Source of the DNA: Nitrosopumilaceae archaeon
Lineage (GTDB): Archaea; Thermoproteota; Nitrososphaeria; Nitrososphaerales; Nitrosopumilaceae
DNA length: 64,000 bases
Assembly: GCA_965208905.1 (NCBI GenBank)
Contig: OZ242365.1
Coordinates: 1,472,001-1,536,000, forward strand
Reading direction: 5' to 3'
The notes beneath the pieces were generated by a model, which saw nothing but the letters and a program-made list of their open reading frames with translations, was not told where the DNA came from and searched no databases. A program made the position numbers and the translations under genes. How positions within the stretch are numbered: position 1 is the stretch's first letter; each line of letters opens with the position of its first letter. Positions 60,371 to 63,300 of the stretch are shown piece by piece.

Positions 60371-63300
60371 TTACATCAGTCTGCTCTGCGCAGGTCCTTC
60401 AATGAAATTATCTAGGCCAGTCTTTATGGGCTTCCATTCTGGAGGTTCAAACTCTTCTGGTAGTTCAGATACAAGCCTGTCTGACTCTACACCCACATAT
60501 ACAAGGCGTTCTATTAGTGGTATAATATCAATGGGTTTGCCGTCCAAACCCTTGGTTGCATCATTTGTGATGCCACTCTCCTTGTCTACATGTATCTTGT
60601 AGCGATCTATTGCCCATTCAAGCGGTGTACGGCCATTAACGCGATATTTAGTTTCTGGAATATTTTCAAAGACTATGATGCCGTTGATTCTGAGTGTTTT
60701 TGTGTCTTTTACCATCTTGCCGTCTTTTTTTATTCTGGCAAAGTCCATCTTTTCGTACTTTCCAAATTTAGCCTTTGGTTTTCCCAAGTCATATCTTTCG
60801 CAGGTCTCCCAGGATAAATGTAGGTCTGCAAGTTTTCTGCCAATCGTACAGAATGCCCAAAAGAAGTCAGGCGCCATCGGTATGTGTGGTAGCTCTCTGG
60901 TCAGGTTGTTTGCATACTTTTTACGGTATCCGGGTGAATGCAACATACCATATACGTAGTAGAATATGTCGAGTTTTGTTATCTTTGTGTCTTTGTAGTG
61001 TTCACGGTATTCATCTAAAGCATAATCTGTGATGTTGTCCTGCATCATTTCATCTTCACCTGAAATGGAAACACCTGCCCATGATGTACTACTTCCAGAT
61101 CCGGAGTCATGTTCGTTATGAAGACTGAGAACTCGCCCTGAATCTTGTATGGAACTATTATGCATAGATTGCGCAGATCTCTCTCTCTCTCTCTCTCTCT
61201 CTCTCTCTCTCTCTCTCTCTCTCTCTCTCGAGTCTATCTTCTTGACCTTTAATGGGAACGATTGTGATTGTGCAATCAGGTGAAGATCAGGAGTCACATC
61301 TGTCACTATCACAGAGAATTTCTCTCCAATTCCTTTGTCTGGCACTGCAATCACTTTATTTTCCGAGTTGTTTTCGGGAAATATTATATACCCAAGTCTC
61401 GGAGTTTGGTTGAATACTCTGTCTAGATACAAATATTGTTTAAAAAATGGTCGATATGTTGCAATACGTATCTTTCTCTTATCAAATTTTTGTTCACCAT
61501 ATCGCTTTAAAGCAAAAGATAATTCTCCACTCCACTTAGCTTTTTTTTGATTTATTATTGGATTGTTCCAATCTTGAGAATTACAATAATTTATACACAA
61601 TTTCATATTTTTAGACAATGTTTTTTCTGATGAGTTATATACCCATATATCTCTCTTAGTTTTAACACCGTTTGCATATGTTCCAAACACCGCATTCCCC
61701 TTCCCGGCCTTTGCATCCTTACTGCCCATGGGAAGATAGTCATTAAACTCATCACGGCGCTGGTCCAACCAGTCGTGGTGCTTATCAGGTTTTAGGGTCT
61801 GCCAGTCGGAGATTCCGGTGATGGAGTGTGATGTCCTAATGATATCGAGTTTCTTTTCCCTAGAATGATAGTCACCAATGTCATAGGAGTGTATGACTCC
61901 CTTAGATTTTTTGGTCGGGTTTTTGACAAGTATGGTAATGGCCACAGGAGCCCGGGAACCCGAACCGAAAATCTTTCCCCCCTCTTTTCTAGATATTTCA
62001 CCTTGTGTTCGTTGATTGCCCCTCAAGTCAAAGACCCATATGTCGGTAAACTCGTCTTGCAGACATGCACGCAGGCCGGCGGCAGCCTCTGATCTTATGA
62101 AGGAACCGTTTGTTACAAATCCGATAATTCCGGACTCTCCTATTCTGTCTGATGCCCAGCGAATAGAGCGTATATAAGAGTCATACATAGCATTTTTTGC
62201 ACCAAGTTTTGGATTTATCGATTTAAGTTTGTTCATGTAGGTATCTTTGATTCTATTATTGATATCCGGATAGTCTATATTTTGATTCTGGTCGTCATAA
62301 CTTGACTGACCTGCCGAATACGGCGGATTACCCACGATAACATGCAGGTTTGTCTTGCGCTGTTTCTGCCGCCTCTTTTTGATATCCACAAACTGCTCAT
62401 CTATCTTGGTCGCCTCATGTCTATGATGTTTTCCTTCCAGATATCTTGGATTCATCATGAGTGTATCCGTATAGTTCATTCCCTCAAATGACACATATTG
62501 CTCTGATCCCACAATACTCTGATATGTGGATTCCAGATTTGCCGTGGCAATATAAAATGCCAGTAATGACATCTCATTCGTAAACATGTCATTTCTGTAC
62601 TTTGACTCTATATTATCTCCAAGCAGTCCAGAGTCAAGTAGCCTTGCCAGAAACGTCCCTGTTCCTGTGAAAGGGTCCAGTATCTTGACTGTATCATCAG
62701 AAAAGTCGGTACCAAACTCGGACTCTAGTATATGCGCTACACTATACAATATAAAATCAACTACCTCTATTGGAGTGTACACTATGCCGTCCCGATTCGC
62801 CCTCTTTGGATCAAACTTTTGATAGAATGTCTCATAAATTTTCCTAATAAACTCCTGTCGGGACTCGTTGTCTGTTATAGATTCGGCAACCAGACTGATG
62901 TCTGCATAATCTATTACAGTATCGGAAATACCCAATATGTCTCGGAGTCGTTCCAGTTCCCGCGCAATACTGTTTGTATTATAAAACTCGTAATCATATA
63001 CCATGGCAAATATTCTGGCAGTTACAATATGTTGTATCAGCATGTTTGTTATGCTGGCCTGATCTATGGTATCATTGAGTATCTCTTTGCATACGGTTAC
63101 AAACCGTGCAGACTCTGCCTCATATTTTTTGTTGTTGTGAATCTTTTCGGATACAAGATTTCTAGTATCGGCTATGACATCACCAAGATTCTCCCCAAAT
63201 TTTTTGATGGCCTCATCATACTTTGAAAAGCCGTCAAATGCTTCCTGTATGCGCTCGTCTATGGAGACGTGATCATCTTCCGCACTGGATTTTATTCTGT

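Follow-up and report, generated by a model that had tools for sequence, protein, structure and literature searches.

A dinucleotide repeat and an off-frame second recognition segment in a DrdV-like enzyme gene of a Nitrosopumilaceae archaeon: a candidate three-way switch

The stretch analysed here (the window) comprises 64,000 nucleotides of a Nitrosopumilaceae archaeon (contig OZ242365.1, positions 1,472,001 to 1,536,000). On its minus strand, an open reading frame (ORF) of 1092 amino acids (window 60371-63649) encodes a predicted restriction-modification (RM) enzyme and contains a perfect (GA)26 tract at 61178-61229. Upstream of the tract, in the frame of the main ORF, lies segment A. Downstream of it, in the +1 frame, lie the 44 codons of segment B. 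Segment B terminates at a TGA (61047-61045), and its reading frame shares three bases with the ATG at 61048 in the motif ATGA; this ATG starts the remaining 225 amino acids, referred to here as the C-module. The features of the locus are as follows, where n is the number of GA units, TRD is the target recognition domain and HMM is hidden Markov model.

60371..63649, minus strand: enzyme of 1092 amino acids (fused state, n = 26), from the ORF, Pfam, PDB sequence matches and a structure model with Foldseek
61239..61363, minus strand: segment A, predicted beta-hairpin and Loop VI of the TRD core, main frame (HMM core 61253-61345)
61262..61291, minus strand: predicted Loop VI of segment A (PDL-HLIAQS-Q), from alignments to LlaGI, LlaBIII and DrdV
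61178..61229, minus strand: (GA)26 tract, read from the sequence, encoding poly(Arg-Glu) in every frame and setting the downstream frame
61048..61179, minus strand: segment B, +1 frame, predicted second hairpin and Loop VI, translated only if n mod 3 = 0
61072-61101, minus strand: predicted Loop VI of segment B (PDL-EVVHHG-Q)
61049..61177, minus strand: fusion-frame reading of the B bases, a Ser/Gly-rich stop-free linker from A to the C-module at n = 26
61045..61048, minus strand: ATGA overlap of the B stop and the C-module start, putative termination-reinitiation site of the split state
60371..61048, minus strand: C-module, 225 amino acids, last TRD-core helices and the 'guide' subdomain (a name taken from the LlaGI work; PMC4872093), aligning with LlaGI chain 1230-1403
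63646..63990, minus strand: upstream ORF of 114 amino acids whose stop overlaps the enzyme ATG, with a sub-threshold PIN_12 match (E 0.048)

Translation of alleles with n = 24 to 28 gives three outcomes. With n = 26, A is joined to the C-module through the off-frame reading of B. With n = 27 or 24, the chain contains A, the repeat and B and then stops at the ATGA. With n = 25 or 28, a stop is reached 7 codons past the tract. By these translations, the C-module is part of one chain with the rest of the enzyme in the fused state and forms a chain of its own in the split state. Segments A and B share 20 of 41 residues (49%; BLASTP, E = 8e-12, single comparison). A preliminary description, made from the letters alone, had proposed the tract, A, the off-frame B, the overlap of TGA and ATG and the 225-residue C-module, and this anatomy was confirmed in every detail. 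Its three-state arithmetic and its view of A and B as paralogues were likewise correct, and the main frame past the tract, which it had called low in complexity, is Ser/Gly-rich and predicted to be disordered.

The (GA)26 tract is the sole dinucleotide repeat of at least 6 units in the whole 2,214,775-bp genome. Its length rests on the assembly, and the run data are Logan contigs, all of which break at the tract. The contigs of all four sequencing runs end there from both sides. The run contigs X2-X4 cover the flanks at 60700-61168 and 61240-61700, and the contig of a relative in X1 ends there too.

Three Pfam families were identified in the 1092-residue protein: the ISP coupler (PF22240, E = 4e-11), a methylase (PF02384, E = 4e-9) and Type_ISP_C (PF18135, E = 1e-78). 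The methylase is of the gamma-class N6-adenine kind with an NPPY motif, which aligns with N1018-Y1021 of LlaGI (LlaGI numbering is the chain index of 5ffj_A plus 164, so that N1018 of NPPY is chain index 854). Neither ResIII nor Helicase_C was found in the protein by Pfam, and its alignment to LlaGI begins at the coupler of that enzyme. The first 170 residues have no Pfam match at E<=0.1. The sequence matches in PDB are LlaGI (E = 2e-151), DrdV (7lo5, E = 2e-132, residues 167-800) and LlaBIII (E = 2e-119). An alignment gap lies at residues 800-889, with ~88 residues here versus ~14 in LlaGI. Compared with Type IIL enzymes of the DrdV kind, the length and the connector-methylase-TRD order match, and the N-terminal 170 amino acids are without a recognizable nuclease family. 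Lacking the helicase, the enzyme falls outside Type ISP proper; it is DrdV-like, having the architecture of Type IIL and a recognition domain of the Type ISP family. The earlier label 'type ISP-like' holds for the coupler, the methylase and the TRD but not for the helicase.

An AlphaFold2 model of residues 560-1092, based on a 51-row alignment, has a mean predicted local distance difference test score (pLDDT) of 86.6 and superposes on LlaGI, LlaBIII and DrdV (Foldseek E = 4e-34 to 1e-29; for LlaGI 5ffj, E = 4e-34 and TMq 0.67). In this model of the fused state, segment A has a pLDDT of 78-97 and the C-module exceeds 90, and the off-frame reading of B (model residues 276-304) is disordered with a pLDDT below 50. 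The poly(Arg-Glu) encoded by the repeat (protein residues ~807-831, model residues 248-272) is modelled as a single long helix, which may serve as a stiff spacer whose length varies with the repeat number.

Segment A aligns with LlaGI chain 1171-1215, corresponding to residues 1335-1379, and in the alignment segment A or B spans the LlaGI beta-hairpin (1347-1358) and Loop VI (1365-1374). According to the available passages of the LlaGI study (Kulkarni et al., 2016; PMC4872093), the hairpin touches the DNA backbone and props up Loop VI, Loop VI is one of three target-reading loops of the TRD, and the +3 base pair is read by H1368, G1372 and Q1373 of LlaGI and by N1360 of LlaBIII. In DrdV, D803 and K807 are among the TRD base contacts, with the target position unnamed in the passages of that report available (bioRxiv 10.1101/2021.01.06.425610). 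The residue following the conserved PDL of the segments aligns with LlaGI H1368, LlaBIII N1360 (the numbering of which matched exactly on checking) and DrdV D803, and the Gln four residues on aligns with LlaGI Q1373 and DrdV K807. At the LlaGI-H1368 position, the window gene encodes His in A and Glu in B. Queried alone against PDB with phmmer, the 44 residues of B gave nothing at E<=10. The alignments indicate that A and B are homologues of a base-reading loop. The target-recognition reading of the preliminary description thus agrees with the structure alignment that it had suggested as a check, down to the base-contacting residues.

The orthologous locus L040, which encodes a protein 80.6% identical to that of the window gene, shows where the two enzymes differ. 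The N-terminus, methylase core and C-module agree at 85-100% of positions, and the TRD core (A included) and methylase residues 448-487, which follow NPPY, at 40-65%. Judged by their position just after NPPY, residues 448-487 should be the counterpart of LlaGI Loops I-II. At the sequence level, this pattern of divergence is the usual signature of diverged specificity.

The same layout (A, repeat, B in another frame, ATGA, C-module) was retrieved at 24 two-segment loci in 14 Nitrosopumilaceae-type assemblies, so that the homologues which the preliminary description had proposed to look for do exist. The 14 assemblies are G000, G003, G004, G005 and G008 together with nine records labelled Nitrosopumilus or Nitrosopumilaceae/Thaumarchaeota archaeon. 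Loci were detected with an HMM of the segment and dissection of the junction, and the relatives examined were the best 80 of 593 among genome contigs and the best 80 of 556 among metagenome contigs. Homologues are present in 14 of the 41 related genomes searched and in 8 of the 9 of the same genus (G000 excluded). The best named relatives of the C-module are from metagenome-assembled genomes (MAGs) recorded as Nitrosopumilus sp. or Nitrosopumilaceae archaeon. The SSU rRNA of the genome itself is archaeal (1444 bits with the archaeal model). A second copy was identified in the same genome (L002, genome C1:2142524-2145272). It encodes a Type ISP enzyme proper, with ResIII and Helicase_C by Pfam, and its junction consists of (AGACTCC)10.9 followed by B in another frame, the ATGA and the C-module. 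This copy is in the stopped phase at present.

The repeat units at these junctions are 1, 2, 7, 8 or 11 nt long, and no length is divisible by 3. Eleven unit sequences were recognized (GA/AG, CA, G, four 7-mers, three 8-mers and one 11-mer), and the junction tract reaches at least 20 nt in 19 of 25 related loci. The overlap of B stop and C-module start is ATGA in 20 of the 21 regular loci and GTGATG in L044. Three loci were set apart from the regular ones in the frame tests: L006, which is without the ATGA and in which B reads past the C-module start; L027, in which B is in frame with the C-module; and L029, which was grouped with L027, having identical A, B and repeat.

Several loci extend the layout. 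L045 (820-1300) contains three segments, separated by (GA)5 and (G)7. At L057 (1900-2880), an 11-nt unit is repeated ~89 times at the junction (978 nt) and is stop-free in all frames; by its sequence, it would insert a repetitive linker of ~326 amino acids within the recognition domain. L043 (2650-3060) combines a 7-nt repeat with B, ATGA and the C-module; upstream of these, every frame is closed by stops and no ORF carries an A segment. It is possibly an orphan or silent cassette. L067 (2440-3060), from a MAG recorded as Dehalococcoidia bacterium, contains a poly-C tract and, past it, two additional hairpin/loop segments that use the other two frames, with the third frame open into the C-module, giving a different loop for each of the three frames. 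As far as this MAG record goes, the design extends beyond archaea.

Where the HMM detected a segment in bacterial loci, the genes are as a rule unsplit with a single segment (23 of 80); it saw none in 46 of the 80 genome-contig loci, mostly from distant bacteria. L070, with two HMM matches 2.6 kb apart, was excluded from the doubled count. Comparable doubling was not found in 80 more distant metagenome loci by a crude self-similarity screen, which is insensitive and missed the known doubles L044, L057 and L059 (156 of 160 loci contain the C-module landmark motif that it used). The screen flagged nine loci: L045, L052, L058, L060, L062, L063, L065, L067 and L155. L155 shows weak self-similarity with copies 800 nt apart, and L060 contains a 570-nt direct duplication. 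Metagenome contigs scanned with the window C-module alone gave no match, and among the 80 metagenome loci found with the alignment query no near-identical allele of the window locus was present (best 58% identical). In G003, ~ten paralogous copies (L006, L018, L023-L030) share blocks of 90-99% identity in a mosaic pattern, which suggests frequent recombination among the copies.

Loop types differ between A and B in all 24 two-segment loci. The types include HLIAQS, EVVHHG, HIHEAS, QVITNG, HILEAN and NNIAPP, and they swap slots between loci; the EVVHHG type mostly occupies the B slot, but is found as A in L058 and L063. Some unsplit homologues, such as L050 and L035 on its minus strand, have a B-type loop as their single loop.

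The repeat is intragenic, its unit is not a triplet and its copy number sets the frame, as in contingency loci based on simple sequence repeats (SSRs). Across the 24 loci, 10 are fused, 5 split and 9 stopped. All 6 loci with a short or decayed repeat (<20 nt) are productive (5 fused, 1 split), and the doubled loci with a tract of at least 20 nt are stopped in 9 of 18 cases. L024 and L030 are 99.3% identical over 3421 nt, and the single gap between them is one 8-nt unit that turns the stopped phase into the fused one. The orthologue L040 carries (GA)5 versus (GA)26 in the window, and other GA-type loci have 10 to 20 units. These sequence differences indicate that the repeat number changes on short time scales.

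Both reading frames of the B region appear to be constrained. A minimum count of changes over the 23 different B sequences gives 34, 21 and 62 at the first, second and third B-frame codon positions. In the 93%-identical relative from a sponge metagenome, all 6 listed substitutions (61066-61126) are on B-frame third positions, with 16 further differences unlisted. In all 21 regular distinct B sequences, the fusion frame runs through without a stop. When the codons of B were resampled synonymously with genome codon usage, the fusion frame was open in 3.5-24% of trials per sequence (P 0.035-0.24). In A, the corresponding frame is free of stops in 2 of 22 sequences, or 1 of 21 without L027. A stop in the fusion frame needs a T-ending codon followed by one that begins with AA, AG or GA. 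In B, T occurs at 0 of 169 such stop-risk sites versus 92 of 690 sites elsewhere (Fisher 8e-10, a value overstated by the relatedness of the sequences). In A, T occurs at 57 of 204 equivalent sites versus 142 of 576 elsewhere, with no avoidance. In L027, an indel has put B in frame with the C-module, and the former fusion frame is shut by a synonymous GGC-to-GGT substitution. L029, a near-copy of L027, probably shares this joining of B and C-module frames.

These comparisons indicate that B is under purifying selection in its own frame and that the fusion frame is kept stop-free by selection. On the same evidence the B region is dual-coded, as the preliminary description had supposed: one frame gives a structured hairpin and loop, and the other no more than a stop-free linker. 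Since the fusion frame appears to be kept open and B to be selected as protein, the fused and the split forms would both be selected.

We propose the following mechanism. The (GA)26 tract, which directly follows the TRD's last base-reading loop, would act as a heritable and hypermutable selector of the reading frame. In the fused form (n = 26, the assembled state), a possible nuclease, the methylase and the TRD with A would be followed by the helix, the disordered linker and the C-module, and specificity would be set through Loop VI of A. In the split form (n mod 3 = 0), the chain would run through A, the repeat and B and end at the TGA that overlaps the C-module ATG, and the C-module would be re-initiated as a separate subunit that docks back. 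Archaeal operons commonly use termination-reinitiation at overlaps of the ATGA kind. In this form B would replace A in the fold and alter the base read at one target position. In the off form (n mod 3 = 1), the stop 7 codons past the tract would leave no coupled C-module. Switching would occur within the population and alter the methylation and cleavage motif, and may pay off as bet-hedging against viruses or through changes of methylome state. We consider it highly probable that the repeat is a three-phase switch under selection. The whole explanation, a heritable three-way repeat switch that includes a change of specificity, is reasonably probable, and that B changes specificity is only just probable.

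The reassembly of the split form was modelled with ESMFold2 on the N-chain and C-chain of the natural split pair L044. The interface score ipSAE is 0.92, versus 0.01 for the best control, and the mark set for this score is reached by 58 of 80 solved complexes and by 2 of 110 mismatched pairs. The contact agreement between runs is at least 84% and the pLDDT of the partner at least 89. The model suggests that the N and C chains can reassemble, and its success may reflect memory of the solved LlaGI fold. Three arguments favour displacement of A by B. B is translated only in the split phase, yet its sequence points to strong protein-level selection together with a variable base-contact loop. In the unsplit L050 and L035 (minus strand), a B-type loop is the sole one. 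Displacement also has an experimental precedent in Helicobacter pylori JHP1272 and HP1353-54.

Several observations weigh against the proposed mechanism or parts of it. The confident interface of the L044 model includes A (186-226) and no residue of B (247-276); it thus gives no support for displacement, although the model is unable to weigh two competing copies and may copy the solved fold. AlphaFold2 failed on the natural A+B chain alone (5-row alignment, pLDDT 32.7). B is more conserved than A between orthologues, with 38 of 44 residues identical (by eye) against 45-57% in 20-residue windows of A, as would likewise be expected of an element with a constant role in structure or docking. Nine of the 24 loci, including the second copy in this genome, are stopped, and many copies may simply be off. 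The selection statistics count related sequences as independent. Lastly, the tract length comes from the assembly, in which an error of one unit would alter the current state assigned to the gene.

The conservation of B and the placing of A, not B, against the C-module in the split-pair model are what would be expected if the repeat were an on/off contingency locus that leaves specificity unchanged. A would then always provide Loop VI, and B would aid docking or folding of the C-module or buffer the split form. B is more conserved than A across paralogues as well, and on/off switching is the common case among SSRs in bacterial RM genes, as covered by the available passages of two accounts (PMC7383803, PMC11868660). 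However, the B slot is not constant: it holds at least 4 loop types, the types cross from one slot to the other, and A differs from B at every one of the 24 loci. The residues that vary are the base-reading ones in three solved structures, B-type loops act as the only loop in L050 and L035(-), and the three alternative segments of L045 and L067 are hard to explain by docking. We regard an on/off switch of this kind as unlikely. Heritable change at the DNA level would be unnecessary if polymerase or ribosome slipped on the repeat, so that one allele gave a mixture of fused, split and truncated products. The repeat is long and stop-free in all frames (52 nt here, up to 978 nt in L057), and each of the three downstream frames has a defined outcome, which speaks for slippage. 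The near-identical L024 and L030 nevertheless differ in copy number in the DNA, all three phases are fixed in assemblies, and the layout persists in L035 and L028 despite loss of the repeat, fixed in a single productive frame. Most documented cases of transcriptional slippage involve homopolymers, which also counts against this explanation, and we consider it improbable.

The mosaic paralogues of G003, with their 90-99% identical blocks, fit an origin of the layout in recombination, in which the duplicated segment and the conserved B-C block would be by-products of TRD-core swapping and the repeat would have no selected function. So do the divergence between the window gene and its orthologue, centred on the TRD core and methylase residues 448-487 between flanks of 85-100% identity, the repeat-B-C arrangement of L043 without an A-bearing ORF upstream, and the sponge-metagenome relative that matches only downstream of the tract. 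Recombination leaves unexplained why the units are only non-triplet, why the ATGA overlap is present, and why B shows a third-position bias and a stop avoidance that is relaxed exactly where B and the C-module share a frame; we give it the same low probability as slippage. An assembly artefact or a decaying pseudogene is very improbable. Long dinucleotide tracts are error-prone and the contigs of all four runs break at this one, but those contigs reach the tract from both sides, a relative from another study also ends in it, and homologous repeats lie at the same junction in independent assemblies. The ORF is also intact and the protein models well (pLDDT 86.6). The possibility of an assembly artefact or a recent tandem-duplication scar was rejected in view of the low identity of A and B (49%) and the conservation of B in its own frame.

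The closest precedents for the three-way switch are the H. pylori Type IIG enzymes Hpy99XIV (JHP1272) and HpyAXVI (HP1353-HP1354), which show frameshift-mediated switching of specificity (Krebes et al., 2014; PMC3936762). According to the passages of that report available, a repeat brings a small duplicated part of the TRD into frame and the regular part is displaced, with shifts from GGWTAA to GGWCNA and from CRTTRA to CRTCNA. In those genes, as here, a slippage-prone repeat within a single-chain RM gene governs translation of an extra TRD-like piece, and the segment brought into frame here resembles a base-reading part of the TRD (A versus B, 49%, E 8e-12). The extra piece of H. pylori was shown to alter two target positions, and a separate repeat serves on/off control there. 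The enzyme described here is not of the MmeI family (its TRD is PF18135; MmeI 5hr4, Foldseek E 1.7). The H. pylori systems, as far as those passages describe them, are bacterial, use homopolymer tracts and two repeats, carry the extra domain at the C-terminus, and have neither an overlapping dual-coded frame nor a translationally coupled separate C-subunit. Here, the switch lies inside the TRD core, the units are of 1-11 nt, one repeat has three outcomes, and the arrangement is conserved across many archaeal paralogues.

LlaGI and LlaBIII (Type ISP) and DrdV (Type IIL) share with the window enzyme the coupler, the methylase, the TRD fold and the target-reading loops. They contain one hairpin/Loop VI joined directly to the rest of the TRD; they have neither a repeat nor a second segment, and their C-module is not split. 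The window enzyme is without the Type ISP helicase, whereas its paralogue L002 has it. The Type III mod and Type I hsd genes of phasevarions resemble the window gene in the non-triplet intragenic repeat that shifts the frame of a methyltransferase and in the presumed benefit of bet-hedging. In the available passages of the two reviews (PMC7383803, PMC11868660), these genes switch on and off, or undergo truncation in hsdS, and belong to host-adapted bacteria. The gene described here would have two productive, selected frames with alternative recognition loops, in an archaeal host. The hsdS shufflons, such as pneumococcal SpnIV/tvr (PMC6265443, in the passages available), also keep alternative TRD pieces in one locus and yield several specificities per clone. 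In shufflons, inverted repeats and a recombinase move DNA, whereas here the reading frame would pick the segment and nothing moves.

Within the literature searched, no repeat-driven RM switch was found in archaea, nor any driven by repeats among Type ISP or DrdV-like enzymes. The available part of a 2025 review of phase variation names the archaeal distribution as future work (PMC11868660). In a review of archaeal RM systems (PMC11033074), 'phase-variable' occurs only in the reference list, and the 12 'archaea' passages covered, of 21 in a 2026 review (PMC13076061), contain nothing relevant. The preliminary description had known of no such switch described in archaea. That part holds as far as these sources go, but frameshift switching of specificity is already known in bacteria (PMC3936762), and the bacterial MAG of L067 carries the design too. 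The principle thus has a precedent in H. pylori. New are the enzyme family, the domain of life, the position of the switch inside the TRD core, the single repeat with three outcomes, the selection on both overlapping frames, the translationally coupled split subunit, the multi-cassette versions and the amplification to ~ten copies in one genome (G003).

The surroundings of the gene contain further repeats. Downstream of it, at window 59515-60051, a 223-bp tandem repeat is present in 2.4 copies with 98% matches, and each copy contains a 53-codon ORF. Over L001 1-955 (~window 58874-59828), 3' of the gene, the identity to the orthologous locus L040 is 95.6%. The sole BLASTN stretch of at least 400 nt at 90% identity or more between L001 and L040 falls in this region and not inside the gene. 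Elsewhere in the genome, (GTAGT)62 occupies an intergenic gap at C1:1691070-1691379, beside an ORF with a Cys-rich, possibly zinc-ribbon, N-terminus, and 13 homopolymer runs of 10-15 nt were counted (G 10-15, C 11-14, A 10-12). The (GTAGT)62 array and the homopolymers are possible further contingency loci.

Taken over all loci, the layout may represent a family-wide, frame-encoded cassette system of sponge-associated ammonia-oxidising archaea and at least one co-resident bacterium. Each frame past a hypermutable repeat would encode a different base-reading loop (two in most loci, three in L045 and L067), the overlapping frames would be kept open, and the remaining recognition domain would be re-initiated as a subunit. 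We judge the case for a system of this breadth to be evenly balanced.

If the proposed switch is real, it would be the first SSR phase variation documented in Archaea. Such variation has been regarded as a trait of host-adapted bacteria, and here it would occur in an environmental or symbiotic archaeal lineage. One stretch of DNA selected in two overlapping frames would be a clear natural case of dual coding with a defined purpose. As the switch lies at a loop structurally known to read a target base, these genes would offer a natural experiment on the reprogramming of specificity, which is a stated aim in the available passages of the structural work on LlaGI, LlaBIII and DrdV (PMC4872093, bioRxiv 10.1101/2021.01.06.425610). 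Gene callers will call the split and stopped phases pseudogenes or fragments. With up to ten such genes per genome, restriction and methylation specificities could be cycled combinatorially without a recombinase. This suggests how symbionts in virus-rich sponge tissue may vary their defence and their methylome without recombinases.

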